A stretch of 64,000 nucleotides of DNA from a virus. A program made the position numbers and the translations under genes. How positions within the stretch are numbered: position 1 is the first letter of the stretch; each line of letters starts with the position of its first letter. Location of the stretch: IMG/VR virus record IMGVR_UViG_3300037424_000665, positions 41-64,040 of that record; one strand, given 5' to 3'. Under the pieces are notes generated by a model. The model saw only the letters and a list, made by a program, of their open reading frames with translations, ran no database searches and was not told where the DNA came from. Shown piece after piece: positions 1-61,555 of this stretch.

Positions 1-853
1 GCTTTCGAATAACATCGGCGACGCCCTTACCCCCTGGCTCATCGAGAAGATCACAGGTCAGACGCCTTTGTATGTGCTCTTCGACGTGCAATTCCCGAAG
101 TTTATGGTGACGGGCAGCGTGCTCAATCACGCCTCAGATTACACGACGGTCTGGGGGGCGGGCTTTGCCAACTTCGATGACTGCCTGCACGCCAAGCCTA
201 TCATCAAAGCCGTGCGGGGTCCCGTGACTAAGCAACGTGTGGAGTTTCAGGCGGGGATACCCGTAGAGGTTATGGGCGACCCGGCACTGCTCATGCCGAG
301 ATTCTATGATCCACGGACAGCCGGCAGAGATCGACATTACAAGGTCGGTTTTATCCCCCACTACGTTCACCAAGTAGAGACAGCCGCATGGCTCAACGAC
401 CGGGATGACATCAAGCTCATCAACGTCTTCGATACGCCGGAACACTTCGTCTGGAACCTTCTGCAATGCGATGTGGTATTCTCTTCATCCCTGCATGGTC
501 TGGTCATTGCCGACGCCTATGGTGTGCCGCGTGCCTGGTACAACGGGACGATCCAGTTAGGCGGCGACGGGGCGAAGTTCGCCGATTACTTCACGCTGGT
601 GCACGGCCCCGAGAAGAGGTCGCCGGCCCATCCGCACATCGAAGAATTGCCGAAAGACCTGAACGATCTTTACAAGTTGGCGATGCAGAATGAGCCGCCC
701 GATGTCAAGGCGATCTGTGATGCCCTGTGGGACGCCTGCCCGTTCAAACCACCCGTGCAGCAGGAACACAAGCTCGACAAGCCCTTGCCGCCGGTAGTTC
801 CCGGCCAGCCGCTTGCCCAGGAAGATGATATCGAGGAGATCAAACCGAAATGA
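1..853 (+). CDS. Polysaccharide pyruvyl transferase family protein (5'-partial; frame open from position 2)
   Basis: Frame reads LSNNIGDALTPWL...GSVL...WGAG...AVRGPVT...GDPALL...FIPHY...SSSLHGLVIADAYGVP, the typical PS_pyruv_trans motif set. Confidence 0.9.
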   Translation, partial: LSNNIGDALTPWLIEKITGQTPLYVLFDVQFPKFMVTGSVLNHASDYTTVWGAGFANFDDCLHAKPIIKAVRGPVTKQRVEFQAGIPVEVMGDPALLMPRFYDPRTAGRDRHYKVGFIPHYVHQVETAAWLNDRDDIKLINVFDTPEHFVWNLLQCDVVFSSSLHGLVIADAYGVPRAWYNGTIQLGGDGAKFADYFTLVHGPEKRSPAHPHIEELPKDLNDLYKLAMQNEPPDVKAICDALWDACPFKPPVQQEHKLDKPLPPVVPGQPLAQEDDIEEIKPK

Positions 854-1407
854 GCGACGTGAAACTCTCCATCCTGATACTGACGATACCGAGCCGTGCG
901 GACAAACTCGAACGACTGATGAAGATTCTCAGACAGCAGATACCCGTCGATGGCTCCGTGGAGCTTATCGTCAAAGAGAATCGTGCTATCCCCGACGGCG
1001 GGCCGACGATAGGCGAGAATCGCAACGCCGCACTGGCCGATGCGATAGGTGATTACGTGTGCTTCATCGACGATGACGACGTTGTATGTGATACGTACAT
1101 CGCGGAGATTATCAAGGCGACGGCCAGTTGCCCCGACGTGGTCGGCCTCAAGGGTCACTATATTTTAGGCGGCAACAAACCGGAGCTTTTCGTCCACTCG
1201 ATTCAGTACACCGAGTGGAAGACGGTCGATGGGGTGCATCAGCGATGCCCGAATCACCTCAATGCCGTCAAGCGCGAGCTGGCCTTGCAGGTCGGCTTCA
1301 CGCCGAAGAATCACGGCGAGGACAGCGACTACTCGATGGCCCTGCGACCGCTACTCAATTCAGAAGTGATGCCGGAACCCATCTTGTATTTTTACCTAAA
1401 GACTTAA
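850..1407 (+). CDS. Glycosyltransferase family 2 (GT-A)
   Basis: LSILILT N-terminus, IGENRN, YVCFIDDDD, GED motif; ATGA overlap with upstream gene. Confidence 0.85.
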   Translation: MSDVKLSILILTIPSRADKLERLMKILRQQIPVDGSVELIVKENRAIPDGGPTIGENRNAALADAIGDYVCFIDDDDVVCDTYIAEIIKATASCPDVVGLKGHYILGGNKPELFVHSIQYTEWKTVDGVHQRCPNHLNAVKRELALQVGFTPKNHGEDSDYSMALRPLLNSEVMPEPILYFYLKT

Positions 1408-1408
1408 A

Positions 1409-1690
1409 ATGAATAAAGTAATCGCTATAACAGTAACATACGATCAACTTATCGCTGCGTTAAATGAAGCACAACACTTCACCGGCGATGTGATTTCATT
1501 CAAGATACCTGCGCAATATCTCGACGGCCCTATCGTTGAGTTGCATATCACCGAACTTCCAAAACCAAGCACATGCCAACAACAGATATGGCTCAATACA
1601 CCCCCAGCAACGTCCCGAAGGCGTACCCCAAGATCAAGGGGCAGCAGGCCAAACGAAAGACGCCGGCCAAGAAACGGAGTAAGTGAATGA
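1409..1690 (+). CDS. Hypothetical protein (AT-rich block)
   Basis: ATG directly after upstream stop; coupled to next ORF. Confidence 0.5.
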   Translation: MNKVIAITVTYDQLIAALNEAQHFTGDVISFKIPAQYLDGPIVELHITELPKPSTCQQQIWLNTPPATSRRRTPRSRGSRPNERRRPRNGVSE

Positions 1691-2052
1691 ACAAGTTGGC
1701 AACGATTATTGATGTGAGACGATTCGACCCGTACAATAACACATGGCCTGTGTGCGTGGTTTCACCTGATAACAAGTACGATCCGCAAAATGCCTTCGTG
1801 GATACAATCAACGGTAGAATACAGATCACGCCCGGCATGTGGATATTGACTGACATACACGGGGACAGAGAAGTAATGCCGATTGAGTGGTTCCGGCCAT
1901 TCTTTTTTCACAAATCATATTGTAATGAAGACTTCGCATATACACTCTCAGGAACGACGTCAGACAGATCCGTTTTCGCGGATTGTCTGTATAAACACGG
2001 ACCGGAATGCACTCTTGGTGTTTCAGGAGAAGGATCAAAAAAATGGACGTGA
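1687..2052 (+). CDS. Hypothetical protein
   Basis: ATGA overlap, 121 aa ORF. Confidence 0.5.
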   Translation: MNKLATIIDVRRFDPYNNTWPVCVVSPDNKYDPQNAFVDTINGRIQITPGMWILTDIHGDREVMPIEWFRPFFFHKSYCNEDFAYTLSGTTSDRSVFADCLYKHGPECTLGVSGEGSKKWT

Positions 2053-2083
2053 AACAGAAGCGGCGCAAGTAGAAGGGAAAGTA

Positions 2084-2242
2084 ATGCGATTATTCTGCAG
2101 GATACTTGGGCATTGTTTCGCCTTCGAGAAATATGAGTTACTTTTTCGATGCCCTGAACCACCCGGATATGGCGCCCTTATCTGGGTAGTCAAATGCCGA
2201 CGATGCGGAATACAACGCAAAATGAGAAGGAGCGATAGATAG
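2084..2242 (+). CDS. Small Cys/His-rich phage protein
   Basis: RBS-like AAGGGA; MRLFCRILGHC...CRRC. Confidence 0.4.
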   Translation: MRLFCRILGHCFAFEKYELLFRCPEPPGYGALIWVVKCRRCGIQRKMRRSDR

Positions 2243-2256
2243 TAAAGGAGAATCCC

Positions 2257-2436
2257 ATGCCGAAAGGCTACGAGCACATGAGAGACAAGTTCATGCAAGA
2301 AGGCATGAGCGAAGACGCGGCCCAGGCGAAGGCGGCACGCATCTGGAACGCCGAACACCCCGGTAATCCCGTGACCGGCAAGCATCATGGCAAGAAGAAG
2401 AGTGTATCCAGCGGGAAGATGACGCGAACCAAGTAA
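2257..2436 (+). CDS. Small basic hypothetical protein (59 aa, below ORF-track cutoff)
   Basis: AAGGAG RBS; MPKGYEHMRDKF...KMTRTK. Confidence 0.6.
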   Translation: MPKGYEHMRDKFMQEGMSEDAAQAKAARIWNAEHPGNPVTGKHHGKKKSVSSGKMTRTK

Positions 2437-2463
2437 GCGAACAACGCCAGAAGACATAGGCAC

Positions 2464-2553
2464 AGGCGGAGTAGCTACCGCCGAGTGCTATCACCACGCA
2501 GCCTGTGATAGAGGCCGTAGGGTCGAAAGACTTTGCGGCCTCTTTCTTTTGGC
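2464..2553 (+). ncRNA. Conserved three-hairpin element ending in a terminator (copy A)
   Basis: GGCGG-AGTAGCTA-CCGCC; CTATCAC/GTGATAG; GAGGCCGTAG..GAAA..TTGCGGCCTC plus T-tract; second copy at 61468-61555. Confidence 0.5.
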
Positions 2554-2571
2554 AATGAAGGAGTCAGGAAA

Positions 2572-3822
2572 TTGAGATTCTTGTTCAAGTATCCTACGAG
2601 ACAAAGGCCCGAATGGTTTCGCCAGACCTTAGCCGCGTACTACAGGAAGCTCAGCGGCGTTCACGAGTACCGTTTCGTGATCACGATGGACACCGACGAT
2701 GCCTCGATGAACAACCAGCCGATGCGCCAGTGGCTCGAATCGCAGCAGCACTTGAGTTTCCACTACGGGGACCACAAGAGCAAGATCGAGGCGTGCAACG
2801 CCGGTGTGCCCGACGAGGACTGGGACATCCTCGTGCTGGTCTCGGACGATATGACGCCCATCGTGACGTGCTTCGACGACATCATCGCCCGCGATATGCA
2901 GCAGCACTTCCCCCAGCTCGACGGCGTCCTGCACTACAACGACGGCAAGGTGGGCTCTAAGCTGATGACGCTCTCAGTCTTAGGCCGCGAGTTCTACAAG
3001 AAGGTCGGGTTCGTCTATTGGCCGGCGTATCGGGGGACGTGGTGCGACAATGACACGATGGAGATGGCCCAGCAGTGGGGCAAATACTGGTACAGCGATC
3101 AGACCATCATTCGGCACGACTGGCAACAGCATGAGAAATACAAGGGCGATGCGGTCTATCAGAAGGGCGAATCAAGCTATCCAGCCGACAAACTCATCTA
3201 TGAATGGCGCAAGGGCCGCAAATTCCCCGTGTCCTTCTCACAGAACGATGAGGACTGGCCTATCCGCCGCTACTTCAAAGACAATTTCCACGGCAGGTTC
3301 CTGGATATCGGGGCCGGGGACGGCGTGACCTTCAGCAACACCAAGATTCTCTACGACATGGGCTGGGACGGTGTGGCGATGGAGCCCTCGCCGTCGCTTT
3401 TGGGCGCTCTTGAGATAAACATGCACCCCGGCAGGGTCAAGACGATTCGCGGCGCCCTGGCCCAGCATGATGGCGGGATCGAATTTTACCACGCCAGAGG
3501 TGATTTCATCTCGACAACGAACACGGCCCACCGCGACAAGTGGGCAACTTGCGCCCACGTGCCCTATGAGACTCTCAGCGTGACGGCTCTGACGTGGGAC
3601 GATATTCTCGCTCAACATGGTTATGACTTCGATTTCCTCAACCTCGACGTGGAAGGCGAGAATATCGCGCTGTTCAAACTCATCCCGGCGGAGCTGCTCA
3701 ACAGGCTCAAAATGGTCTGTGTGGAATACGACGGTAATCCGGGAGCCGTCAATGAGATATGCCAGCCTTACGGCTTCAAGCAGATACACAGCACGGGAGA
3801 GAACGTGATTCTGGCAAAATGA
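2572..3822 (+). CDS. Fusion of GT-A glycosyltransferase and FkbM-family methyltransferase
   Basis: TTG start after AAGGAG; LVSDDM and WCDND in N-half; FLDIGAGDGVTFSNT, EPSP, LNLDVEG in C-half. Confidence 0.85.
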   Translation: MRFLFKYPTRQRPEWFRQTLAAYYRKLSGVHEYRFVITMDTDDASMNNQPMRQWLESQQHLSFHYGDHKSKIEACNAGVPDEDWDILVLVSDDMTPIVTCFDDIIARDMQQHFPQLDGVLHYNDGKVGSKLMTLSVLGREFYKKVGFVYWPAYRGTWCDNDTMEMAQQWGKYWYSDQTIIRHDWQQHEKYKGDAVYQKGESSYPADKLIYEWRKGRKFPVSFSQNDEDWPIRRYFKDNFHGRFLDIGAGDGVTFSNTKILYDMGWDGVAMEPSPSLLGALEINMHPGRVKTIRGALAQHDGGIEFYHARGDFISTTNTAHRDKWATCAHVPYETLSVTALTWDDILAQHGYDFDFLNLDVEGENIALFKLIPAELLNRLKMVCVEYDGNPGAVNEICQPYGFKQIHSTGENVILAK

Positions 3823-5330
3823 CCCCTGATGAACAAACCCAACTCGACATCAACGGAATAGTCACCATAGCTTTCGGCGGTGAATACGACAAGATTGCCG
3901 CCGCCTGCATCAGGCACAGCCGCAAGTTCACGGGCCTGCCAATCCGGGTGTTGACCAATCTCACACAGGACCAGCGGAGTGACGTGTGGAAAGAAGTATC
4001 CGGTGTCTATTTCACCTATATCGACAAACCCAATAACGCCAATAGGCTCGTCAAGATTCTGCACGTCCAAGACCCGTTCTTCGACCGAACCATCTACCTT
4101 GACGCCGACGCACTGATTCAGCGCACAGGCATTGAAACCGTCTTGGGTATGCTGAATTACACGGATTTTGTATTCAACAGCGTCTATCACTGGAAGCCCA
4201 CCGACAAAATCCCGAACATTTACGCCAAGGCCCTCTTGGCAACGGGGGCCAAACTTCCTTTGCGAACCTACAGTGGGGGATTCTTCGCGTGGAAGAAGGG
4301 TCCTTTGGCGGAGGAATTATCGAAAGTCTGGCTGGACTATTGGCAGCGCACGGGCGGAGGCAGGGACATGCCCGCGCTGGCCTGCGCTGTTCAGCGAGTG
4401 CAACCGGCTATCTTCGATACGGGACTCTCGCCCATCTTCGCCGCCGAGCGAAAGGACCCTAAGTGTATCATCCAGCACAATTACAACGGGACATTCTTCG
4501 AGGACTTCGGACTGCCGAGGTTCCAGGAGAACAAGTGGTTCGACAGCGATCCCTCGGATTTCAGAATGACTGAATTCAAACGCACCGTAACAATCCAGAG
4601 CCACAACGGGATAGGCGACCTGCTCTTTGTGACGCCTGCGCTGCGAAGAATCAAGGAAGCCTATCCCGACTGCGAGATCATCGTCAATACGAACAAGCCA
4701 ACGCTGCTGATGGGCAATCCTTACGTCGATAAGGTCAACGTGGGAACGGATGGCGTCTTTTTGGGCTATACTGCCCCGGACAGCGGAAGACTGCCGGCCG
4801 AGCATCATATCCTCGAAGATTGGCGGATAGTGTGCAAGGCGTACAATCTCATCACCGAGCCGCCGGACCTGCGGCCCGAGCTTTACATCCCCAACCTGCC
4901 GCCGAAGCGGAACCTTATCGGCGTCCAGACCGTTCATAAGGGCAACTACCACAACAAAAGGGTCTGGCCCGGACTGATAGAGCTGTCTCGACGTGAAGGC
5001 TTCGAGGCTATCCCTGAGATCGTTGACGGCGATAAGATGATCGGGTTGGTGAGGAAACTGGCCGAATACCAGGCCGTCGTATGTCCCGAAGGAGGCATCT
5101 CCCATATCGCCGCCGCCCTGCATCTGCCGGCGGTCGTGGTCTTCGGGGGCTTTTCAGACCCCCAATGGACGGGCTATCCCGACCACGTCAATATCACCAG
5201 CGACATCGAATGCCGCCATTGCTACAACAACAACCCGTGTGTGAACAAGGAGCCGTTCAAATGCTTTCAGAGTATCTCTGTTCAAAGTGTAGAAGAGGTT
5301 GCCAAGGCGCTGATAAAGAAAAGTGCCTGA
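3819..5330 (+). CDS. Fusion of GT-A domain and GT9 (heptosyltransferase-like, GT-B) domain
   Basis: YLDADAL and RDMPAL in N-half; HNGIGDLLFVTPALRRIKEAYPD and EGGISHIAAALHLPAVVVFG in C-half. Confidence 0.85.
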   Translation: MTPDEQTQLDINGIVTIAFGGEYDKIAAACIRHSRKFTGLPIRVLTNLTQDQRSDVWKEVSGVYFTYIDKPNNANRLVKILHVQDPFFDRTIYLDADALIQRTGIETVLGMLNYTDFVFNSVYHWKPTDKIPNIYAKALLATGAKLPLRTYSGGFFAWKKGPLAEELSKVWLDYWQRTGGGRDMPALACAVQRVQPAIFDTGLSPIFAAERKDPKCIIQHNYNGTFFEDFGLPRFQENKWFDSDPSDFRMTEFKRTVTIQSHNGIGDLLFVTPALRRIKEAYPDCEIIVNTNKPTLLMGNPYVDKVNVGTDGVFLGYTAPDSGRLPAEHHILEDWRIVCKAYNLITEPPDLRPELYIPNLPPKRNLIGVQTVHKGNYHNKRVWPGLIELSRREGFEAIPEIVDGDKMIGLVRKLAEYQAVVCPEGGISHIAAALHLPAVVVFGGFSDPQWTGYPDHVNITSDIECRHCYNNNPCVNKEPFKCFQSISVQSVEEVAKALIKKSA

Positions 5331-5839
5331 CGGCGCCGGCCCTCAACTTGGGCAGCGGTTTCATGCTCAAGAAGGACCATATCAACTTCGATATTCTCGA
5401 TATTCAGGTGGATACCGTGAAGACCGATATCGTCGGCGACGTTCGCACGGCAACCTCCGTTTTCCAACCCTGCATGTTCGCTTCGATTTTCTGCGCGCAC
5501 GTCATCGAGCATTTCTACGCCGTCGAAGCGCAGCATCTTCTGGCGGACTGTTTCACACTGCTCCGGCCCGGCGGACTGATGGTTCTTGAGGCGCCCGATA
5601 TCGAGAAGATCATCCTGACCTACGAAGTGGGTCAGATTAACCAGGTTATCCAGGAAATCTACGGCGATCATCAATGGATGGCTAAGTACGGCGATAAGTG
5701 GATGCACAAATGGGGCTGGACGGGCAAGCGGGCCGCCGATGCCATGCAGGCGGCGGGTTTTAGGATTCGCATGATAGGCGACGGAATCTCGCATCACAAA
5801 CCATTCAGAGACTTTCGGGTGGAAGGAGTTAAGCCATGA
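5327..5839 (+). CDS. Class I SAM-dependent methyltransferase (start uncertain: CTG 5327 or ATG 5262)
   Basis: LNLGSG, FDI, CAHVIEHF, LLRPGGLMVLEAPD. Confidence 0.8.
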   Translation: MTAPALNLGSGFMLKKDHINFDILDIQVDTVKTDIVGDVRTATSVFQPCMFASIFCAHVIEHFYAVEAQHLLADCFTLLRPGGLMVLEAPDIEKIILTYEVGQINQVIQEIYGDHQWMAKYGDKWMHKWGWTGKRAADAMQAAGFRIRMIGDGISHHKPFRDFRVEGVKP

Positions 5840-6813
5840 ATTATCTCGTTACAGGGATTACGGGTTTTGCCGGCCCGCATTTGGCCAGGCTGTTGTTGGA
5901 CGAAGGCCACGAAGTCTATGGCCTGATTCGCGGCTCGAACGGCAGAGAAACCGACCTGCTGGACGTGATGACGGAGGCCGAACTCAAACGGATTCGCTGG
6001 TTAGTGGCCGACCTGGTGGACTTTCCGAGTCTCGAACAGGTCATCAGGCAGAATGCCCTTGACGGCATTTTTCACTTGGCGGCGCAGAGCCATCCGCCGA
6101 CCAGCTTTTCGCAACCCGTTATGACGTTTCAGAACAACGTCATGGGTTCGGTGAATCTCATCGAGGCCGTCGCGCAGCATCAGCCGCATTGCAAGCTGCA
6201 TTTCTGCTCGTCGTCGGAGGTCTATGGGAACCAACAGGACTGCGAATGGACCGAGGACGCCCCAATCAAGCCCGCCAATCCCTATGGGGCCACCAAAGCG
6301 GCCATCGACATCTTCATGCAGGAACGGCTCAGAAACCAATATATTCGAGGATTTATCACCAGGGCGCACTGCCATACGGGGCCGCGAAGGGGCTACCGAT
6401 TCAGCATCTCCTCGGATGCCTACCAGATTGCTAAGATGATCCTCGATCTGCAGGAGCCGGTCCTGTTGATAGGCAATCTCGATACCACCCGCCAGGTCAT
6501 GGACGTTCGGGACTGCGTTCGGGCCTATTACAGACTGATGCAGGCGGACCTCAAACACCACGTCTATAACGTCTCGACCGACCATAGTTACGCGATGCGG
6601 TTCTTCACCGAGACCCTGATAAAACTGTCGGGCCTCAAGGACGTGGTCCAGAAGATTCACCCTCCTTTCTGGCGGCCCATTGACATTCAGGCTCAGCATT
6701 CGAGGACGGAGCGTTTGCGGTCGGAGATCGACTGGAAGCCGGAAATTCCCATCGAGCAGACGTTAGGGGATTTGCTGGCGTACTGGGTGGTGAAGTTGCG
6801 AAAGAGCAAATGA
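5836..6813 (+). CDS. gmd: GDP-mannose 4,6-dehydratase / GDP-6-deoxyhexose reductase family (extended SDR)
   Basis: VTGITGFAG, HLAAQSH, SSSEVYG, YGATK, GNLD..R..MDVRD; Gmd vs Rmd not separable by eye. Confidence 0.8.
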   Translation: MNYLVTGITGFAGPHLARLLLDEGHEVYGLIRGSNGRETDLLDVMTEAELKRIRWLVADLVDFPSLEQVIRQNALDGIFHLAAQSHPPTSFSQPVMTFQNNVMGSVNLIEAVAQHQPHCKLHFCSSSEVYGNQQDCEWTEDAPIKPANPYGATKAAIDIFMQERLRNQYIRGFITRAHCHTGPRRGYRFSISSDAYQIAKMILDLQEPVLLIGNLDTTRQVMDVRDCVRAYYRLMQADLKHHVYNVSTDHSYAMRFFTETLIKLSGLKDVVQKIHPPFWRPIDIQAQHSRTERLRSEIDWKPEIPIEQTLGDLLAYWVVKLRKSK

Positions 6814-7484
6814 ACGTCGAATTTGAGATAACCCTGCGCTGTAACGCGGCTTGCGACTCCTGCTCGCGGCACTGTCACTATGGGATGTATGATGAAGCAT
6901 CGGACGTGACGATGGGCCAGGTCTCGCGGTTCATCGAGGAAGTCAAAGGTCATCCCGATATCGACATGATTCACGTCATGGGCGGCGAGCCTACGCTGCA
7001 TCCCGAATTCAATACGATTGTCTCGATGCTCAAATGCACCTTGCTCGATACCGGCAAGATCAAAAGACTCCAGATCGTCAGCAACGGTTTGATCCCTATT
7101 GACCCGGCGCTCGGTGTCGGCGTGTGCCTATCCCCGCCTGAGAAGTCTGCGAGGCATCGCTGCATGTTCGTAGCGCCGTGCGATACCGGCCAGGAATTGA
7201 AGGACTGCCCCGTCCCCCAGGATTGCGGCATCAGCTTCGGGGCCTACGGCTATTGGCCGTGCGGGGCCGGAGGCGCTATCTGCCGGCTGTTCGGCTTTTC
7301 GATGTACCATCGCATGACCATCCCCAAAGACGAGAGAGACTTTCCTTACGAGATGGCGATGTGCGCTTACTGCCAGGCGAAAGCCAAGATGTATCTGATG
7401 TGCAAGGACTTCGGCGAAATCAAGAGCATCAGCTTCCGCAAGGCGTTTCGGGAGTTCAATGCGAAGAAACTCAGGAGATATTGA
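6810..7484 (+). CDS. Radical SAM protein
   Basis: CNAACDSC (CxxxCxxC), MGGEPTLHP, SNG, Cys-rich C-terminus. Confidence 0.85.
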   Translation: MNVEFEITLRCNAACDSCSRHCHYGMYDEASDVTMGQVSRFIEEVKGHPDIDMIHVMGGEPTLHPEFNTIVSMLKCTLLDTGKIKRLQIVSNGLIPIDPALGVGVCLSPPEKSARHRCMFVAPCDTGQELKDCPVPQDCGISFGAYGYWPCGAGGAICRLFGFSMYHRMTIPKDERDFPYEMAMCAYCQAKAKMYLMCKDFGEIKSISFRKAFREFNAKKLRRY

Positions 7485-7486
7485 GA

Positions 7487-7723
7487 ATGAAGATCGAAGT
7501 ACGATTGATACCCGACTTCGCGCGGGACTCAGAAAAAGAGATTGAGCACGAAATCGGCGTGTTGAATGATATTCTCGGTCATGATGCCGCACATTGCAGA
7601 GAAAAGACTGACGGAATCAGTGGGCCTCTCGTGAGGAACTATGCTTTGTGGACCGGCGATTTCTGGGAACTCTACAAGCGAATCAAGGACCGCATCTACC
7701 GGCGACTGGAGGCACAGAAGTGA
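7487..7723 (+). CDS. Hypothetical protein
   Basis: AGGAG upstream; 78 aa. Confidence 0.5.
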   Translation: MKIEVRLIPDFARDSEKEIEHEIGVLNDILGHDAAHCREKTDGISGPLVRNYALWTGDFWELYKRIKDRIYRRLEAQK

Positions 7724-7933
7724 AAGTCATCGACAAGCTGAAAAAAGTATGCGTTTCAGAACCATCCATTAACCGGCCCCGAACCAGGCGAGGGACCCGA
7801 AGCATATGGGGAAAGATGTCGGCAATGGGCAAGGGAACAATGTATGATTTTCAGTGGATACCATAAAGATGATGAACATTGCCGGTAAGCAGAAGATGTT
7901 GCCGCAAGCGCCGATGCAGACAGTGGGGGCGAC

Positions 7934-8152
7934 ATGATAGCGCAGGAAGTGATAGAACGGTGTCGCTCAGCGAAGCGTCTTATCCCCGTGGTCATTGAGG
8001 GTCAAGAGTATTATTTGGCGATCGCGCATCCTCGAATGTATTACTTGCTCAAGGTGGCGGCGGCCAAAGAGAAATACAGACACGAGCGATGGGTGGAGCG
8101 ATACAATCGTTGGCGGCGAAGCCACGGGGAGGGCGCAAACCCCAATGAGTGA
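7934..8152 (+). CDS. Hypothetical protein
   Basis: GGGGG RBS-like; ORF in operon order. Confidence 0.45.
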   Translation: MIAQEVIERCRSAKRLIPVVIEGQEYYLAIAHPRMYYLLKVAAAKEKYRHERWVERYNRWRRSHGEGANPNE

Positions 8153-8324
8153 TACTTGTGTAGTAATTTGTCTATCTCTGTGGCTGATCGTTGGCTTTGT
8201 GAGTTATGTATATGGAATGATCAAGTTTGATTGTGAATTTTATGGATTTGTCCATTTTGTTTTTTGGATTCTTCTGGGACCAATCGGATTGTTTATAAAT
8301 ATGAAAAATTGGAAAAATGAATGA
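8145..8324 (+). CDS. Small membrane protein (AT-rich insert)
   Basis: Two hydrophobic stretches; 5' end duplicates that of 8492 gene. Confidence 0.5.
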   Translation: MSDTCVVICLSLWLIVGFVSYVYGMIKFDCEFYGFVHFVFWILLGPIGLFINMKNWKNE

Positions 8325-8499
8325 TCGAAGACGACATCCATTATTTGATGATCAAGATGGCACGTGGACATATTTCGGAAAACAATATACCAGTTTAGAA
8401 CTTGATAAAAAATTACATCTATCAAAGCGATTGACAATCATTTCACATATTAAGGAGCGTCTTCAAAAGATAGAGAAGATGAAGCCATCCAATGAGTGA
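8317..8499 (+). CDS. Hypothetical protein (AT-rich insert)
   Basis: Overlapping start/stop with neighbours. Confidence 0.4.
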   Translation: MNDRRRHPLFDDQDGTWTYFGKQYTSLELDKKLHLSKRLTIISHIKERLQKIEKMKPSNE

Positions 8500-9172
8500 T
8501 ACCTGTGTCGTCAACTATTCCTCCGGCTGGTTCGTCAGGGGCCAGCAGCGATTGAAACAAGCCTGCCTCGACGTGGGCTACAAGGGGGATTTCCTGCTGT
8601 TCAACGACGAGAACCCCTTGAAGTGCCCGCCGCACAGCCAAGTGCCCTACGGCTTCAAGCCCTACGCGATGAAAGAGGCGCAGAAGCGAGGTTATCGGTT
8701 CATCTTATGGTGCGATTCGAGCGTGTACCCGGAAAGGCCCCTGGACGCCGTGTGGGCTCTGCTGCGCGAGCAAGGCTATATGTTCTTACAGTGCGGTCAC
8801 AACTGCGGAACGTGGTGCACCGACGTGGCGTTGCAAGTCCTTGGTATCGACAGGGAACTGGCTTTTACGTTACCACAACTCGTCGGCGGCTGTCAGGCCC
8901 TCGATCTTCAGAATGAGTTGGCGAGGAAGTATCTCGACCGATGGTTTGAATTGGCCAACGACGGTCTGAGCTTTCATGGTGACTGGACCAACGAACACGG
9001 GCAGGTCTCGAAAGCCCCCCGCGTCAAAGGACATCGCCACGACCAAGTTATCGGAAGCCTGATTGCCTATCAGTTGGGCATGACGGACTTCAAAGGAAAC
9101 TGGCTTATCTACGACGAGCGGGGCACAGTGCCGCGACGGCCGGAAATGATATTCGTGGTCAGGAGTGCATGA
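8492..9172 (+). CDS. GT-A nucleotide-diphospho-sugar transferase-like protein
   Basis: YGFKPYAM, ILWCDSS, HRHDQVIGSL. Confidence 0.7.
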   Translation: MSDTCVVNYSSGWFVRGQQRLKQACLDVGYKGDFLLFNDENPLKCPPHSQVPYGFKPYAMKEAQKRGYRFILWCDSSVYPERPLDAVWALLREQGYMFLQCGHNCGTWCTDVALQVLGIDRELAFTLPQLVGGCQALDLQNELARKYLDRWFELANDGLSFHGDWTNEHGQVSKAPRVKGHRHDQVIGSLIAYQLGMTDFKGNWLIYDERGTVPRRPEMIFVVRSA

Positions 9173-9440
9173 TATGCGCGGTCTCTTATTGGAAGTTAGC
9201 GTTCTTAATCCAGACGAATATGATCTTGAAACATTCTGCAAGGAATTGGTCGAATGCGCAACACGCCTCACTATCAATGTTGAGGCCCCATTTCGGGGAA
9301 CGACCATTCTTGCAACGCCTACAAGCACCTCAGAAGAGTTGGTAGCCAATTTCCGTAGGCGATTGGAGAAACACCGGGAAGAACAGAAGAATCTCGGCAT
9401 TTTCAGTATGGATGAACAAGTGAAATACAAAGGGATGTAG
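9165..9440 (+). CDS. Hypothetical protein
   Basis: AGGAG RBS, overlap with upstream stop. Confidence 0.45.
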   Translation: MHDMRGLLLEVSVLNPDEYDLETFCKELVECATRLTINVEAPFRGTTILATPTSTSEELVANFRRRLEKHREEQKNLGIFSMDEQVKYKGM

Positions 9441-9444
9441 TGTT

Positions 9445-10233
9445 ATGAGCGTTGCCCGCAAATTCCGCCGTCAGCATTTGTCTTCCACGCCTATCGGCAA
9501 GGAGCCGCCGGTCCTGATTGTCAGGCCGCATAAACAGGAGGGCTTTACCTGCGAGGCCACGAGCCAGTTCCTGTCCAAAGCCTTCAAGCGGGGCATCGCC
9601 GACTACAAGTGCATGGAAGCCCGGACGCCTGACGTCGCCCGGAATCTCGCCATCCTGGAGTTTCTCAGTAATCCCATACACGCCAAAAAGACGCACCTGT
9701 TCTTCCTGGATGACGATTCGACGCCCTGGAATGATTTTGTTATCGAAAGGCTCCTGAGCCTGGATAAGCCCGTCATTGCCGGCGTGACGCCTATCTTCAG
9801 GAAGAAAGACGCCATCGACTTCAAAAAGATTCGGATGCTGATGCTCGGCGTTGTTCAAAATGAACCTGCCCAGATGGATTTGTATTGGTCGCCTATCCTG
9901 ATGAAAGCCGGCCATTTGGAGCATATCGGTATCGACGAACTGCCCAAGACGCCGTTTGTGGCCCATCGCACGGGAGGTACGTGCCTGCTGATTCGCCGTG
10001 ACGTTCTGGAAAAGCTCAAGCCGCCGTATCAGAAATTCGAGTTCGACGAGCAGCAGATCAAGCTCCTGCGGTCAGAGGACATCTACTTCGCCGATCAGAT
10101 ACGGGAGGCTGGATTCCCTATCTGGATCGACCCCGAGAGCATTTGTCATCACTTTCACGTCCTGGATATTTTGGACATGTTCGCCATAGCGATTCAGGCC
10201 AAAGAGATGGGCAAAACAGGGGAAAAAAGATAA
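9445..10233 (+). CDS. GT-A glycosyltransferase-like protein
   Basis: ARN, THLFFLDDD, GGTCLLIRRDVLE, SEDIYF, ICHH. Confidence 0.8.
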   Translation: MSVARKFRRQHLSSTPIGKEPPVLIVRPHKQEGFTCEATSQFLSKAFKRGIADYKCMEARTPDVARNLAILEFLSNPIHAKKTHLFFLDDDSTPWNDFVIERLLSLDKPVIAGVTPIFRKKDAIDFKKIRMLMLGVVQNEPAQMDLYWSPILMKAGHLEHIGIDELPKTPFVAHRTGGTCLLIRRDVLEKLKPPYQKFEFDEQQIKLLRSEDIYFADQIREAGFPIWIDPESICHHFHVLDILDMFAIAIQAKEMGKTGEKR

Positions 10234-10454
10234 TGGCTGATAGGAATTTTCAATCTTCAGGAAGCCCCAAACCAGAGACGCGAGAAAGTGTGATTCATCG
10301 TATCGGTCAAGAACTTGCTGCCAAAATGCCGAACTTATACGGCAGTATAAGATTCAATTTGCAGGGCGGTCACTATGCGAACGCCAACATTGAAGAAAGC
10401 GTGAAACCTGATGGAGTATCCGGCAATGGCAAAGCCGACAAAAGAACAGGCTGA
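10233..10454 (+). CDS. Small hypothetical protein
   Basis: TAATG coupling; MADRNFQ. Confidence 0.5.
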   Translation: MADRNFQSSGSPKPETRESVIHRIGQELAAKMPNLYGSIRFNLQGGHYANANIEESVKPDGVSGNGKADKRTG

Positions 10455-10577
10455 CCAAGAATGGAAATGGAAAGTCGAATCCGCCGCGAATACCTTCAGA
10501 TAATGGGGAACTGATAAGGGGCTTTGCCTCTGCCAATACAACTGAATAACGTGTAACGAGACGATCTGAAAAACAGA

Positions 10578-10620
10578 AGCTCGTATTTCGCCTGACGGCG
10601 AGATGCGGGCTTTTTTTATT
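10578..10620 (+). terminator. Intrinsic terminator
   Basis: AAGCTCGTATTTCGCC-TGAC-GGCGAGATGCGGGCTT followed by T-tract. Confidence 0.65.
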
Positions 10621-10786
10621 GCGCTTACGCAACCTGCGGCGGTCAACGGCAGGGCGTTACGGCAACGCAACATTGTGCCGGGTCGTTCACGACGCTGCGC
10701 GGTACAGCAGCCCGCAACGGCGACGGATTCGCCGGGTAACAGACGGCCAGATGTAACCCAGGCCGGGAAAAAGAAAGGGTAGCTCT

Positions 10787-11755
10787 ATGACAACTGAAAA
10801 TGAAGGTTTCGACGTGGAAAAGTTTGCTCAGGACGGACTGGATCAGGCCGGGATAAAGCCGGAAGAGACGACGGCAGACGATCAAGTGCAGCAGCAGCCC
10901 GCAGGCGTTGTGTCTAAAACCAACCAGGAACCGGCAGGGCCGGAACCCGATGGGGCCACGCCTCAAGAGGATGAACCTAAAGAGACACCAACCGATGCGG
11001 TCCAGGCAGCATTGAAGGTTACCGAAGAGCCTCCGAAAGCCGACGAACCCGAACCTGAAGTCGAATCGACGATTGCCGAGCTCCTGCCGAAAGCCGAGGA
11101 GCCTGAAGCCAAGCCCGGACCCAAAGTGCCGCTTGATGATCATATCAAGCTGCGCCAGCGGGCCCAGCAGGCCGAGCGCGAACGCGACGAGGCCCTGCAA
11201 AGGCTGGCGGCCACGACCCAGCAACAGACCCAAGAGGTCGAGCCGCTGGAGAAGTGGACGACTGAGAATCCTGAAGATGCTCAGATAAGTCCTCCGCCGG
11301 CGTCAGTCATGCTGGCACAGAGGAAATTCGAGCAGGCTCAAGGGCGAACCAGGGCCGAGGCGCAGCGCAGGGCCGATGAGGCCGAAGCGGGCCGCCGGCA
11401 GGCAATGGCAGGCATTCAAGCCAAAGCCTCGAAAGCTCAGGAGTCGGAAAAGTCCTTTCGGGCTTCTCACCCGGACTATACCAAGGTAACTAAGGCGGCC
11501 CTCAAAGCCAATTTGCTCAGCAAAGAGGAAAGAGACGCCGTCCTGGACGCCGAGAATCCCGGTCAGGAGCTTTACGACCTGGCAAAGGCCAAATTGACCG
11601 CCATCCAGGAAGGGCTGGGCATTACTACTCCCACAGCGGAACCGCAACCAAAACCAGCGGGCAACCAGACGCCGGCTACAGGGGCTCCCGGAGAAGAACC
11701 GGAATTGAGTGATGACGACATCTTCGACGAGGTCTTCAAAGACAAACCCCGATAG
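10787..11755 (+). CDS. Capsid scaffolding protein
   Basis: Acidic, low-complexity, coiled-coil; VPL..HIKLRQR; short acidic C-terminal helix; immediately upstream of capsid gene. Confidence 0.75.
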   Translation: MTTENEGFDVEKFAQDGLDQAGIKPEETTADDQVQQQPAGVVSKTNQEPAGPEPDGATPQEDEPKETPTDAVQAALKVTEEPPKADEPEPEVESTIAELLPKAEEPEAKPGPKVPLDDHIKLRQRAQQAERERDEALQRLAATTQQQTQEVEPLEKWTTENPEDAQISPPPASVMLAQRKFEQAQGRTRAEAQRRADEAEAGRRQAMAGIQAKASKAQESEKSFRASHPDYTKVTKAALKANLLSKEERDAVLDAENPGQELYDLAKAKLTAIQEGLGITTPTAEPQPKPAGNQTPATGAPGEEPELSDDDIFDEVFKDKPR

Positions 11756-11794: not shown

Positions 11795-12988
11795 ATGGCA
11801 AGTACAACCTTTCAGCGAGGCTCGACACATACGAACCTCGTTCCTCAGAAGTGGTCCGCACAGGACTACAAATTCGCATTTGAGGCCAATCCTCTGGCCC
11901 AGTACATCGGGCCTGGGGACGGCATGGTCGTTCAAGTCAATAAGGATTTCACCAAGGAAAAAGGCGACAGGCTCACCTTCGGACTCCGCGCCTTGCTGTC
12001 CGGCGACGGTCAAACCGACGACGGAACTTACGCCAACAACTCCGAAGGCATGACGTTCTACGATATGAGCGTCGATCTCCATGAGCGAGGCCATTCCGTG
12101 GCGCTCTCGGGCAATATGACCGAGCAGGCGGCCTGGAAGAACCTGCGGCCCCAGGGGATGCAGGCACTGCGAGAGTGGGACGGTATGGTACAGTGCGCCG
12201 ACATTATCGCGGCCCTGTCCGGCCTGACCACCAAGAAGCACATCGCAGGCCGGATCACCGGTGCCAATGCCGTCAACGCGGCTGCGGCGCAGATCGGAAC
12301 CGTCAACCAGGTCAGTCTGACCAAAGGTGCGACGGCGACGCGATGGTTCGGCGGGGGCCAGAACTCCAGCGGAACCATTGCCAGGGTCGCTACCGACTCG
12401 GCGATCAACTCGACCTCCAATCACTTGTTCGGCACGGACGTTATCGAGTACCTCTGCCGAATGGCGAAAAAGACGGTCGATGGCTCCGGCAACGCGGTCA
12501 ATCCCATCCGGCCCATCATGGTCAATGGCGAGCCGTGGTATCTGATGCTCATCGACCTGCTGCAAAAGAAGCAGCTTCAGGCAGATACCAAGTGGAAGAA
12601 CGCTCTACAGAACGCCCTTCCGCGAGGGACCAAAGACCACTGGCTGTTCAACGGCGCCGACGGTCTCTGGAACCAGGTGGTCATCAAGAGCACCGACTGG
12701 CTGCATCGCCGGACGGGTGCGGGCGGCATTCTCGCTACGGAGTATTTCGACACCACCGGCGACGCCTGCGCCTCCGGCTTCACCGTGGCGCGTGGCTTGT
12801 TCCTCGGCGCTCAGGCGGCCTGCCTGGCGTGGGGAAAGGCCCCGACCTGGAAGACGGGTTACAGCGACCCGCCTCACGACACCAAGTACACGGTCCATAC
12901 GGATAAAATTTTTGGTGTCAAGAAATCCGTGTTCAATTCCGTGGAACTCGGCTGCATCGTCTGTGATACAGCGGTGATCGGGGATTGA
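11795..12988 (+). CDS. Major capsid protein (N4-gp56/DUF4043-like HK97 fold)
   Basis: KDFTKEKGDRLTF.L...LSGDG, IRPIMVNGE.WY, DTKW..A, LF.GADG.W, RGLFLGAQA...AWGK, G.KKSVFN. Confidence 0.85.
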   Translation: MASTTFQRGSTHTNLVPQKWSAQDYKFAFEANPLAQYIGPGDGMVVQVNKDFTKEKGDRLTFGLRALLSGDGQTDDGTYANNSEGMTFYDMSVDLHERGHSVALSGNMTEQAAWKNLRPQGMQALREWDGMVQCADIIAALSGLTTKKHIAGRITGANAVNAAAAQIGTVNQVSLTKGATATRWFGGGQNSSGTIARVATDSAINSTSNHLFGTDVIEYLCRMAKKTVDGSGNAVNPIRPIMVNGEPWYLMLIDLLQKKQLQADTKWKNALQNALPRGTKDHWLFNGADGLWNQVVIKSTDWLHRRTGAGGILATEYFDTTGDACASGFTVARGLFLGAQAACLAWGKAPTWKTGYSDPPHDTKYTVHTDKIFGVKKSVFNSVELGCIVCDTAVIGD

Positions 12989-13010
12989 TAAGTCCTTACT
13001 GTATAAGGAC

Positions 13011-13544
13011 TTACAAAAGATTATGGGCAATCCTATCACAAATAGGACACAGTGGAATGACATCCAGATAATGTTCTGGTTCATAACCTTTATAATGATG
13101 CCAGAATTTGGCTTGTTTTCCACATTGCGTGCATTTATGGAGAGAGGCGGACTCCATGTCGCCTCTCTCTATTGCATGAGAAACTGCAAGTCGTGCCTGA
13201 AATTTATCAGGATACTTCTGCCGGCGTTTTTTGTCGGAGCGTTTTCTGTAAGTCTTACCTTTCTCGCTTTGTATATAACGACGAAATCCTTTTCTGTGAG
13301 CAATCTTACCTCTTGGTGTATCCAGATAACGTCGCATCCTTATTTTGCGTTGAGGATTATTAAGGTCTCTCAGATAACTCACTTTTCCTTTCTCGCTTTG
13401 CTTGTAACGATGACTTGCTTCATTATGGCATTTTTTACATTGATTGTGCCGACCATCGTTACTCTTTTTGTTCCGTGGAAATTCCTCAAGCGGCTTAAAT
13501 TTCTTGCAGTGCGAGCATTGTTTTGTTTGAATGGCCTCAGACAT
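13011..13544 (-). CDS. Zn-binding HNH endonuclease-like protein (antisense, AT-rich moron)
   Basis: CSHCKKFKPLEEF..NKKSNDG..CKKC; CTQC...HH..Y...LDVIPLCPICD.IAH. Confidence 0.75.
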   Translation of the reverse strand: MSEAIQTKQCSHCKKFKPLEEFPRNKKSNDGRHNQCKKCHNEASHRYKQSEKGKVSYLRDLNNPQRKIRMRRYLDTPRGKIAHRKGFRRYIQSEKGKTYRKRSDKKRRQKYPDKFQARLAVSHAIERGDMESASLHKCTQCGKQAKFWHHYKGYEPEHYLDVIPLCPICDRIAHNLL

Positions 13545-13756
13545 GATCGTTTCTCCAATAAACGGTTGTGTTTAGAGCCATCTTTGCCGTTTACGCGGCG
13601 GATGGCTCGTTTTATTTCGGGCAAGTCTAACAGAAGGCGCTTCGCACGTCAAGTCAAAGATTTCGTTCTCTCGGGGCTTTGTGCCGTCGAGGGACGCTAC
13701 CTTAGTAACCGGCAGGGGTGGATAGGCTCGCCCCTGCCCATCTTTTCAGGTGGCTT

Positions 13757-14335
13757 ATGAGCATAACAGTCAGTGGCGTTCGCACACGGGTACGCCAGAT
13801 TACACGGCGAGACAACACGACGGAACTGTCGAACGATGATCTCGATGTATTGATCCTCGAAGCCTGCCGCGAGATTTCCAAGCGAACCTTCTGCCTGAAG
13901 AGCAGTACGACGGGAACCCTGGCGGGTGACGGTACGACGATCAGCAAACCGTCTGACATGGTGGATTCGGAGTCGGCGATAGATGCGTTCTATCTCGATT
14001 CCAACCTCGAAGACCCGATTAGCTTTGACGAATGGCGGGCTGGCTATGTGGCCGGCTACGCCTACAGGGACCAGACTATCCACGTCAATCCGTCCTCAAG
14101 CAATACCCGATCCTATACGCTTTATTATCGCGCCATGCACGCGGCACTCAGTACGAATCTCGAATTCGAGGACGATCTCAAGATGGCCGTTGTGTGGCTC
14201 ACTTCGAAGAGGGTCTATGAAAATTATGAACTCAACGAGCAGGCGGTGAAGGCGGAGCGCGAGTACGAGCGAGAGCTGCTCGTGAACGCACCGGTCGAAC
14301 CGACTATTTCCCGGATGAGAAAAACCCGCGAATGA
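13757..14335 (+). CDS. Head-tail adaptor (tail tubular A-like)
   Basis: Position after capsid; size; T.S..RT.VR N-terminus. Confidence 0.6.
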   Translation: MSITVSGVRTRVRQITRRDNTTELSNDDLDVLILEACREISKRTFCLKSSTTGTLAGDGTTISKPSDMVDSESAIDAFYLDSNLEDPISFDEWRAGYVAGYAYRDQTIHVNPSSSNTRSYTLYYRAMHAALSTNLEFEDDLKMAVVWLTSKRVYENYELNEQAVKAEREYERELLVNAPVEPTISRMRKTRE

Positions 14336-34936: not shown

Positions 34937-35097
34937 GTGAACGGGAAACATAACACTGCTTGCACACTTAACCGGCTGTTGCAAGCAGCCTTTTTCAGGG
35001 GCCTACGGGCCTCTGCCCTCCTAGGGCCGGATGTCTTCTCCTTAAGGTAATGCCTCGCTACGGCATTTGCCCTCCATCAAGACGCCGGCCCGATTTT

Positions 35098-35168
35098 GCT
35101 CTCGTAGTTTAGTGGCAGAATATCGGGTTTTCGTCCCGATGGCCTGAGTTCGATTCTCAGCGAGAGTA
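35098..35168 (+). tRNA. trnE: tRNA-Glu(TTC), CCA not encoded
   Basis: Acceptor GCTCTCG/CGAGAGT, D-loop AGTGGCA, anticodon stem TCGGG/CCCGA with loop TTTTCGT, T-arm CTGAG-TTCGATT-CTCAG. Confidence 0.9.
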
Positions 35169-35518
35169 TCCCTCGCCAATTGAGATTACTCCGCGAAAGC
35201 GGAATCTCGACATGACTGGACGAGTTCACCCTTACAGACGGTCAATAAATGTCAGATAAAGGGTCGGCGAATTGGCCACCTGCCGTAAATGTGGCCCGAT
35301 TTTGAGATTACTCCGCGATGAGCGGATTCACAAAGCTCAAGAGTGCGCCTCGCTTTCCGTGAGCGGTAGAACGGCGTCCCCTGCCCCAGGGGGTGATCTG
35401 GGGCTGCTACGCACGGGAAAGGGCCGTGTGCCATACTCGACGGCAAAATTCGAGCGAGCCGGTGGAAGGCCGGCATACTTTGGAAAGTGAATATCCCCGC
35501 TTGAAGGGGGCGTTTATG

Positions 35519-58414: not shown

Positions 58415-58936
58415 ATGAGTGAAACTGAACAGAAAAGTACCGCGCAAGAGGAGCCACATCGAGGCCCAGGCCAACCGACGCTCTTTCGGGAAAAATACAT
58501 TGAGCAAGCCTACAAACTGACGCTTTTGGGTGCCACAGACGAGGAATTGGGCGATTTCTTCGGAGTGTCTAAGACGACAATCGAGAATTGGAAACTGGCG
58601 ATTCCTGAATTCTTTGACTCCATAAAAGCGGGCAAGACCCAAGCGGACAGCGAGGTTGCAGACAAGCTGTACCAACGAGCCAAAGGCTACTCGCACCCGG
58701 AGGAAAAGATTTTCTGCCACGAGGGGGAGATCATACGCACGCAGACGGTTCGCCATTATCCGCCCGATACGGGTGCCGCGTGCATGTGGCTCAAGAACCG
58801 CCGCAAGCAGAATTGGCGTGATAGCCACGACATCACGACTGACGGCGAACCCATCACGCCACAGGTCGTCAACTTCGCGGACCTGCTCAAAGCACAGCCG
58901 GCCGCAACTCCGCCCCAGGAACCACCCACGCAATGA
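58415..58936 (+). CDS. terS: Terminase small subunit
   Basis: GPGQPT, GATDEELGDFFGVSKTTI..W, LYQRAKGY, PPDT.A..WLKNR...WRD. Confidence 0.9.
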   Translation: MSETEQKSTAQEEPHRGPGQPTLFREKYIEQAYKLTLLGATDEELGDFFGVSKTTIENWKLAIPEFFDSIKAGKTQADSEVADKLYQRAKGYSHPEEKIFCHEGEIIRTQTVRHYPPDTGAACMWLKNRRKQNWRDSHDITTDGEPITPQVVNFADLLKAQPAATPPQEPPTQ

Positions 58937-61467: not shown

Positions 61468-61555
61468 AGGCGGAGTAGCTACCGCTTAGTGCTATACCAC
61501 GAAACGCCTGTATAGAGGCCGTAAGGGTAAAACCTTGCGGCCTTTTTCTTTTGGC
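61468..61555 (+). ncRNA. Conserved three-hairpin element ending in a terminator (copy B)
   Basis: Homologous to 2464-2553 with compensatory stem changes. Confidence 0.5.

Follow-up and report, generated by a model that had tools for sequence, protein, structure and literature searches.

A glycan biosynthesis island between the portal and scaffold genes of a phage genome and its possible role in virion glycosylation

For the mycobacteriophages Corndog, Che8 (gp110) and Myrna, O-glycosylation of capsid and tail-tube subunits is described in PMC12363180 and PMC12619734, and PMC12619734 gives a Ser/Thr-rich C-terminus as the acceptor in the mycobacteriophage capsid. In Corndog, the genes of a methyltransferase (gp35) and of three glycosyltransferases (gp36-38) lie just 5' of those for gp39, gp40 and gp41, the major head protein, and gp38 is reported to be essential for capsid glycosylation (Freeman et al., 2023, as relayed in PMC12363180 and PMC12619734). 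The corresponding slot was analysed here in a stretch of 64,000 nucleotides (nt), called the window, which comprises bases 41-64040 of the 64,140-bp IMG/VR virus record IMGVR_UViG_3300037424_000665 (CheckV: 100% complete) and carries nearly all of its genes on the + strand. Between its portal and scaffold genes lies an island encoding up to five GT-A glycosyltransferase domains, one GT9-like GT-B domain, FkbM and class I methyltransferases, a pyruvyl transferase, an extended short-chain dehydrogenase/reductase (SDR) and a radical S-adenosylmethionine (SAM) protein. With a probability of roughly 0.55, the island encodes a soluble cytoplasmic pathway that glycosylates the phage's own virion proteins, as in Corndog, in which a founder GT-A enzyme of 262 residues (GT262), encoded next to the scaffold gene, is likely protein-directed. 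Head proteins are the likeliest acceptor.

The likeness to Corndog consists of soluble methyltransferase and glycosyltransferase genes in the head module, 5' of scaffold-like and capsid genes, in a shared slot. The island of the window is 3-4 times larger than that of Corndog and adds a pyruvyl transferase, a GT9-like domain, a sugar dehydratase and a radical SAM protein. Its phage also differs in having a P22-like portal, a Phage_capsid_3 (N4-gp56-type) capsid, an SU10-type adaptor and a probable Planctomycetota host.

Virus-encoded cytoplasmic GT-A enzymes are also represented by PBCV-1 A64R and STIV A197, both structural neighbours of GT262 or of the second, 226-residue glycosyltransferase of the island (GT226). 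STIV A197 is linked to a glycosylated capsid. Methylated sugars occur in the glycans of PBCV-1, whose GDP-mannose dehydratase forms GDP-rhamnose as well. These viruses have eukaryotic or archaeal hosts, the likeness is at fold level only (TM 0.4-0.5, 11-18% identity) and no gene order is held in common. A64R is tied to a glycosylated capsid by the title of PDB entry 2p6w.

Cytoplasmic protein glycosylation by soluble enzymes is likewise found in flagellin systems of the Maf type, and PF01973, the catalytic domain of the Maf enzymes of cytoplasmic flagellin O-glycosylation (PMC11339370), occurs in the slot of relatives of the window phage. PF01973 and NeuB are absent from the window's own genome, where the cassette is of a pyruvyl, methyl and deoxy-sugar type. 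The island has GT2, GT9, FkbM, pyruvyl transferase and GDP-heptose/mannose 4,6-dehydratase genes in common with bacterial clusters for O-antigen, capsule and lipopolysaccharide (LPS) core, the capsule heptose pathway of Campylobacter jejuni included, and its cassette-like variation resembles bacterial serotype loci. Unlike these clusters, it is located in the head module of a phage and lacks genes for a priming transferase, a flippase, a polymerase, a ligase and an ABC transporter. Pyle et al. (bioRxiv 10.1101/2023.12.21.572611) describe DNA-glycan clusters of phages with GT-A and GT-B enzymes akin to those of LPS and teichoic acid, sometimes encoded near structural genes; these clusters are defined by ThyA-like partners or by C5-methyltransferase and TET partners.

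The portal-scaffold slot in related phages

Pfam-labelled gene neighbourhoods of 11 relatives and the DNA of 80 IMG/VR loci (numbered L) were compared. Capsid homologues were abundant in metagenomes, and the DNA sources with matches were soil and sediment metagenomes; in the INPHARED collection no phage exceeded 28% capsid identity, and GT262 and the GT9-like protein gave marginal hits only. The closest genome, G001, is a sister of 64,311 bp whose capsid and portal proteins are 99% and 97% identical to those of the window.

With a hidden Markov model (HMM) of GT262, each of the 15 relatives that had capsid identity of at least 41% and upstream DNA was found to carry an orthologue directly 5' of the scaffold gene; 38 loci of greater distance yielded none. 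The slot of L016 and that of L027 contained no gene besides this orthologue. Because GT262 is present in the whole clade and stands alone in these two, it is regarded as the founder, the other genes having been added later.

In the IMG/VR loci, the spacing between portal match and capsid gene followed relatedness. At capsid identities of 42% or less, the interval was about 1.0-1.8 kb in most loci (2-4.7 kb in a few), which leaves room for little besides the scaffold gene. Relatives of 45-57% identity had intervals of 2.4-6.4 kb; the interval exceeded 7 kb in L007 (73%) and 10 kb in L013 (77%), and it measured 14.3 kb in G001, against about 11.9 kb in the window. These comparisons show that the island grew stepwise around GT262, from one gene to 12-14 kb, by swappable cassettes.

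The cassettes differed in content. A portal-adjacent GT2 gene and the glycosyltransferase domain later fused to FkbM were found in L014, L018, L098, L024 and G001. FkbM methyltransferases were present in L098, LicD with a cytidylyltransferase in L007 and L014, and NeuB with a CMP-sugar synthetase, a PF01973 protein, a B12-radical SAM protein and a TylF methyltransferase in L013; PF01973, NeuB and the CMP-sugar synthetase were also found together in the slot of one further contig. Slots of other relatives held a Capsule_synth protein and more methyltransferases. With one exception, an Acb2/Tad1 gene that is weighed below, the relatives' slots contained glycan-type enzymes and small open reading frames (ORFs) only.

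Between the window and G001 the island was mosaic: protein identity was 99.6% for GT262, 99% for the SDR, 86% for the radical SAM protein and 73% for GT226, with several indels, a split ORF of 278 residues and a duplicated remnant of a gene start. The capsid proteins of the GT262 clade had three short insertions (near residues 161-173, 185-188 and 237-240) that were absent from 38 relatives without GT262. These may be surface loops; they are confounded with phylogeny and are a lead only.

A virion target is favoured because the slot holds glycan genes and the same founder glycosyltransferase in every relative examined with at least 41% capsid identity, because the slot of relatives holds Maf-type PF01973 protein-glycosylation genes, and because the methyltransferase and glycosyltransferase genes of Corndog occupy the same slot.

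Genes of the island

Gene calls were made by Pfam, PHROG and NCBIfam scans and by direct reading of the sequence; all island features below are on the + strand. The first-pass annotation had placed glycan genes between portal and scaffold, and this content was borne out by family matches, by GT-A folds and by the contiguous order in G001. Its FkbM and class I methyltransferases, GT9-like domain and radical SAM protein were likewise recovered (PF05050, TIGR01444, the motif LNLGSG, PF01075 and PF04055).

GT226 (8492-9172, 226 residues) and GT262 (9445-10233, 262 residues) had no Pfam match, and searches of PDB sequences were empty. Both were folded with AlphaFold2 (AF2) from orthologue alignments, giving models of predicted local distance difference test (pLDDT) 80.6 and predicted TM-score (pTM) 0.84 for GT226, and pLDDT 77 and pTM 0.75 for GT262. 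Foldseek returned 68 and 249 matches, respectively, at E ≤0.001, and the matches listed were nearly all glycosyltransferases. For GT226, a retaining-type fold, the neighbours were ColGalT1, LARGE1, UGGT, BoGT6a, PBCV-1 A64R and glycogenin; for GT262 they were STIV A197 (E 5e-9), ColGalT1, LH3, Mimivirus R699, Mnn9 and polypeptide GalNAc-transferases. At the level of predicted models, both proteins were confirmed as GT-A folds with a DxD motif. The FLDxD and ED motifs of GT262 were invariant in the orthologue alignment, and its top structural neighbours, being viral and protein-directed enzymes, were counted as suggesting a virion-protein target. Orthologues of GT226 were found in G001, L013, L007 and L098. 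Two small ORFs flank GT262: one of 91 residues from the ORF list (9165-9440) without a family match, and one of 73 residues (10233-10454) that overlaps the GT262 stop codon (TAATG) and has no Pfam match.

The first gene encodes a polysaccharide pyruvyl transferase (1-853; PF04230, 48.7 bits against a cut-off of 25.3), whose start codon lies 35 nt 5' of the window; it is 89% identical to G001 5514-6392. It is followed by GT2a, a GT2-family GT-A enzyme of 185 residues with the motif FIDDDD (850-1407; PF00535, 27.4 bits against a cut-off of 23.3; phrog_14775, E 2e-39), orthologues of which come after the portal in L014, L098 and L018. The small ORFs at 1409-1690, 1687-2052 and 2257-2436 (together 1409-2436) had no match in Pfam and NCBIfam scans. 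The first two correspond to a single ORF of 278 residues in G001, split in the window, for which an Atlas search gave no usable hit.

A probable GT-A domain fused to an FkbM methyltransferase is encoded at 2572-3822 (PF05050 and TIGR01444 above cut-offs), with a likely TTG start at 2572 behind the ribosome-binding site GAAGGAG. Residues 20-212 match phrog_14945 'glycosyltransferase' (E 2e-10), and this N-domain is a stand-alone gene in L098, L014, L018 and L100. The next protein (3819-5330) has an N-domain with the DxD motif YLDADA and a sub-threshold match to NF045582, a C-terminal GT9-like GT-B domain and a Cys-rich tail, which may resemble the iron finger found in autotransporter heptosyltransferases such as TibC; its two domains are separate ORFs in L007. 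The PF01075 match (27 bits, cut-off 22) was confined to the last 60 residues, and TIGR02193/02195/02201 scored 20-28 bits against cut-offs of 135-185, so that the GT9-like domain is best read as a family-level GT9 member and not as an LPS heptosyltransferase equivalog (WaaC, WaaF, WaaQ). Neither N-domain gave a match with hhalign against folded GT-A families or in PDB profile searches. The count of five GT-A domains in the first-pass annotation was thus verified for three; the other two had only a PHROG match in one case, and a DxD motif with a sub-threshold NCBIfam match in the other.

A class I SAM methyltransferase of 192 residues with the motif LNLGSG (Methyltransf_11 and Methyltransf_23 below cut-off) is encoded at 5261-5839, its start having been chosen from the sequence and from the G001 ORF 12117-12695. 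The SDR (5836-6813; PF16363, E 1e-65) belongs to the GDP-sugar 4,6-dehydratase/reductase group. Its best solved relative was the GDP-D-glycero-D-manno-heptose 4,6-dehydratase of C. jejuni (7us5, E 1.4e-49), followed by Rmd (2pk3), and it always accompanied the GT9-like protein (in the window, G001 and L007). Because of these relatives and this constant pairing, a 6-deoxy-heptose or 6-deoxy-hexose is predicted as its likeliest product. It had been described as Gmd/Rmd-like; a canonical Gmd it is not (TIGR01472, 131.7 bits against a cut-off of 415). The small radical SAM protein (6810-7484, 224 residues; PF04055, 38.4 bits against a cut-off of 29.5) has a Cys-rich C-terminal half, the CX3CX2C motif as CNAACDSC and an orthologue in L013; a PDB sequence search gave one weak match, none to BtrN and no informative solved relative. 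The overlaps 3759/5081 and 6810/7178 were considered as signs of a frameshift or pseudogene and rejected: the upstream starts are spurious, the true starts being 3819, 5261 and 7487.

A variable region (7487-8499) with small ORFs at 7487-7723, 8145-8324 (two hydrophobic segments) and 8317-8499 follows. The stretch of about 1 kb at 7487-8491 is missing in G001, in which the gene of the following glycosyltransferase directly adjoins that of the radical SAM protein, and soil metagenome contigs carry joints of the G001 type across it. An ORF at 7995-8324 was considered as a GtrA-like flippase and rejected, the plausible product being 59 residues with two hydrophobic segments. This small membrane ORF begins MSDTCVV and repeats the first 17 residues of the next glycosyltransferase (8145-8195 against 8492-8542, 59% identity). 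The duplicated gene-start remnant at 8145 resembles a trace left by cassettes that recombined at the starts of genes.

Record structure, transcription units and neighbouring genes

The record starts 5 nt before the start codon of the pyruvyl transferase gene (record position 6) and ends, at base 64140, 148 codons into a diverged copy of it. The first 115 codons of this allele or copy stand at the window end (63656-64000, + strand, continuing to record base 64140), and window 1-413 overlaps the last bases of the record at 83-84% nucleotide identity. The record is accordingly read, from its ends, as circularly permuted, and the overlap as either two strain variants merged in a circular assembly or a tandem duplication of the pyruvyl transferase gene. 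A plural number of pyruvyl transferases had been allowed for; one gene stood, and the partial copy represents either a second allele or the opposite end of the permuted record. In G001 the portal, island, scaffold and capsid genes follow in unbroken order, with a single pyruvyl transferase directly 3' of the portal. Because the record is circularly permuted and the order in G001 is contiguous, the island of the window lies between portal and scaffold.

The upstream border of the island is the P22-like portal gene (61570-63612, + strand; PF16510, E 1.5e-57; phrog_156; 97% identical to the G001 portal). Downstream, an acidic, low-complexity, helical scaffolding protein (10787-11755, + strand), with homologues upstream of the capsid gene in all relatives, is followed by the major capsid protein (Phage_capsid_3, 11795-12988, + strand, start 11768/11795; PF13252, E 1.4e-36; phrog_334). 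The 397-residue capsid form starting at 11795 is supported by homologues, which the sources name 'N4-gp56 family'.

A 90-bp element of three hairpins (2464-2553, + strand), found by sequence reading and a terminator scan, ends in an intrinsic terminator (2510-2543 plus a T-run). It is present twice, 5' of the portal gene (61468-61555) and 5' of the gene for the GT-FkbM fusion (2464-2553), and both copies are kept in G001 (3023-3110, 8833-8922). At the boundary of the island and the scaffold gene lies a strong intrinsic terminator (10575-10614, + strand; 18-bp stem and T7; -24 kcal/mol), and terminators with similar stem ends and T-runs were found at the same place in L018, L013 and L007. Intrinsic-terminator-like hairpins therefore stand at three places: before the portal, within the island, and between the island and the scaffold gene. 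A scan for promoters gave 13 sigma-70-like sites against 8.9 ± 3.0 expected, none of them convincing.

The island genes are co-oriented and many overlap by a few bases. The first-pass annotation had described all of them as joined by start/stop overlaps inside the head operon and as co-expressed late with the capsid genes. The first of these statements fails at the terminators (2464-2553 and 10575-10614), the small ORFs of 1409-2436 and the variable 7487-8491, and the second was set aside, since intrinsic terminators delimit the island. Judged by these signals, the island is not one seamless operon and would, if anything, be grouped with terminase and portal and not with scaffold and capsid. 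In a wetland metatranscriptome, a contig of 158 nt with a match of about 98% to 10580-10728 extends from the hairpin of the terminator into the scaffold leader, which is no proof of transcription.

The large terminase (58933-60438) has been exchanged between the window and G001 (L009), where about 108 C-terminal residues match 2651-2968 at 32% identity; the adjacent portal is 97% identical. Between the capsid gene and the SU10-type adaptor gene (13718-14335) lies, on the minus strand at 13011-13544, an ORF for a basic, Cys-rich zinc-finger protein of 177 residues with an HNH-like C-terminus, next to a sigma-70-like promoter (TTGACG-17-TAGACT, 13652-13624). G001 contains no counterpart of 12986-13503, and in most relatives this place spans just 80 nt or so; the ORF looks like a mobile homing-endonuclease insertion. 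An apparent membrane protein with three hydrophobic segments at 13023-13760 was rejected as a wrong-strand shadow of this ORF. Genes of tRNA-Glu(TTC) and tRNA-Cys(ACA) were found at 35097-35171 and 39531-39606, the former by ARAGORN and Rfam and the latter by ARAGORN only. In L014, a membrane methyltransferase of the PEMT/ICMT type (16602-16946) is encoded among tail genes.

Four capsid homologues lay on contigs binned to Planctomycetota or Pirellulales metagenome-assembled genomes (MAGs), one of the Pirellulales contigs coming from a single-protein scan. A host from the Planctomycetota is probable; as the MAG contigs are short and wholly phage, this is a lead only. The phage lineage is probably podovirus-like.

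The target of the pathway

If the target is the virion, the enzymes would act as follows. The island genes would be made late, probably in the terminase-portal transcription unit. A terminator sets this unit apart from that of scaffold and capsid, an arrangement that would be appropriate for enzymes of which catalytic amounts suffice. The pathway would draw on nucleotide sugars of the host; the SDR would convert GDP-mannose or GDP-heptose to a 6-deoxy-4-keto sugar, and this may be tailored further by the radical SAM protein. GT262 would attach the first sugar to Ser/Thr of a conserved structural protein, the remaining glycosyltransferases would lengthen the chain, and O-methylation and a pyruvate ketal would cap it. 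The product would be a strain-specific oligosaccharide on virion proteins, and exchange of cassettes among near-identical phages would lead to differing virion surface chemistry. The pyruvylated, methylated deoxy-sugar glycan proposed in the first-pass annotation is reasonable from the enzyme set; acceptor and product are not supported by that set alone. The proposal of virion decoration instead of O-antigen conversion is best supported on comparative grounds, and not by late co-expression, from which it had been derived. A fuller version can be offered only tentatively: head-protein or capsid O-glycosylation in a Planctomycetota phage, with a pyruvylated, O-methylated glycan containing 6-deoxy-hexose or 6-deoxy-heptose, with GT262 as the founder of a new family of capsid-directed glycosyltransferases, with oxygen-independent tailoring by the radical SAM protein, and with cassette swapping that gives 'virion serotypes'.

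Several observations weigh against a virion target. Orthology to the Corndog genes was not found: family HMMs were empty, and the one match, of gp37 to the GT-FkbM protein, was marginal (E 1.4e-5 in a set of 30 sequences). The capsid protein ends in ...CIVCDTAVIGD and so differs from those of the mycobacteriophages in having no Ser/Thr-rich tail of the kind that holds their C-terminal sites; other capsid glycosylation sites are possible. The GT-A fold matches had modest TM-scores (0.45-0.5), which cannot name the acceptor. No RNA data set was listed with island sequence, and the wetland metatranscriptome contained few capsid-gene words, its contigs covering only 10580-10728 and parts of the capsid gene, without proof of transcription. 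To these are added three points that bear on the alternatives: the bracketing of the island by intrinsic terminators, which also fits a classic 'moron' architecture; the solubility of most O-antigen and LPS-core glycosyltransferases, by which host lipid-linked acceptors reached through host transporters would be compatible with the enzyme set; and an Acb2/Tad1-hairpin anti-defence sponge gene among the glycan genes of one relative's slot (P0048 contig, locus 5167-5517, 68% capsid identity), so that the portal-scaffold slot also accepts unrelated cargo.

The alternative that survives best, itself unlikely, is remodelling of the host envelope. Soluble enzymes would act on lipid-linked or LPS/capsule intermediates at the inner membrane and use host flippases and ligases, for example to block superinfection or to reduce sticking of progeny to debris. 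GT9, pyruvyl transferase, FkbM, LicD, Capsule_synth and NeuB proteins are indeed typical of bacterial surface-polysaccharide clusters, the terminators flanking the island resemble those of morons, and the distant relative L016 carries a tyrosine integrase. In the record of the window itself, tyrosine (PF00589) and serine (PF00239) recombinases were absent, with positive controls in 14/14 and 12/14 genomes, and a priming phosphoglycosyl transferase (Bac_transf, PF02397) was not found in the genome. The absence of a flippase or polymerase noted earlier was upheld by a check for Wzx, Wzy and Gtr: no ORF of the window had four or more hydrophobic segments, and hence none is a Wzx, Wzy or Gtr-like protein. 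This absence of a recombinase, a priming transferase and a multi-pass membrane protein speaks against host O-antigen conversion. Envelope remodelling more generally is also opposed by the fixation of the founder glycosyltransferase beside the scaffold gene over deep divergence, where host surface chemistry would be expected to vary by host, and by the PF01973 enzymes of the relatives, which are protein-directed.

A second glycosylation pair outside the island (20073-25430, + strand) raises the question of a fibre as the only target. It consists of a GT2 and methyltransferase enzyme of 942 residues (20073-22901; PF00535, E 3.8e-17; PF13578) and a fibre (22902-25430) with about 400 residues of SPSx repeats. 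Ser-Pro repeats of this length beside such an enzyme are a classic O-glycosylation substrate, and the island might extend O-glycans that the enzyme begins on the fibre, leaving the head bare. This is improbable. G001 has neither the fibre nor its enzyme and yet retains the island (GT262 99.6%, SDR 99% identical), and no Ser/Thr/Pro-rich ORF was found in G001 or L007; because G001 keeps the island without the pair, the conserved acceptor must be other than the SPSx fibre. The position of the island and its founder gene are also older than such fibres in the clade.

Rated no higher is a hotspot of accessory genes with a target outside the virion, such as counter-defence, modification of small molecules or nucleotide-sugar metabolism. 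The sponge gene in one relative's slot, the many small ORFs of the island and the frequent indels and recombination remnants would fit a hotspot; against it, besides small ORFs and that single gene, only glycan enzymes occurred in the slots of the relatives examined, and one glycosyltransferase was strictly conserved.

Sugar hypermodification of DNA, in which the glycosyltransferases would act on modified phage bases and for which Pyle et al. (bioRxiv 10.1101/2023.12.21.572611) provide a parallel in glycosyltransferase clusters near structural genes and in heptose- or hexose-containing DNA glycans, is very improbable, as neither of the partners that mark those clusters, a thymidylate-synthase-like hydroxymethylase (ThyA-like, PF00303) and a C5-cytosine methyltransferase (PF00145), was found in the genome (a TET/JBP search, PF12851, was also empty, with a control positive in no genome), and as pyruvyl and FkbM enzymes with six glycosyltransferase domains exceed any described DNA glycan.

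Glycosylation of virion proteins has, to our knowledge, been demonstrated only in a few mycobacteriophages, where the glycans are reported to shield particles from antibodies. If the island has this function, the trait would also be present in an unrelated phage lineage of soil and sediment, in a far more elaborate form, with six glycosyltransferase domains and steps of pyruvylation, methylation, deoxy-sugar synthesis and radical SAM chemistry. The island is then a large, elaborate variant of known virion-glycosylation cassettes, and its particular value is that its growth around one enzyme can be reconstructed: the relatives form a readable evolutionary series from a founder beside the scaffold gene, through cassettes of three to six genes, to an island of 12-14 kb that differs among near-identical phages. 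'Virion serotypes' of this kind, if true, would be a viral counterpart of bacterial O-antigen diversity. The series of relatives also bears on what selects for a variable sugar coat in a virus that never meets an antibody, for which adsorption, particle stability and escape from recognition by hosts or grazers are candidates.

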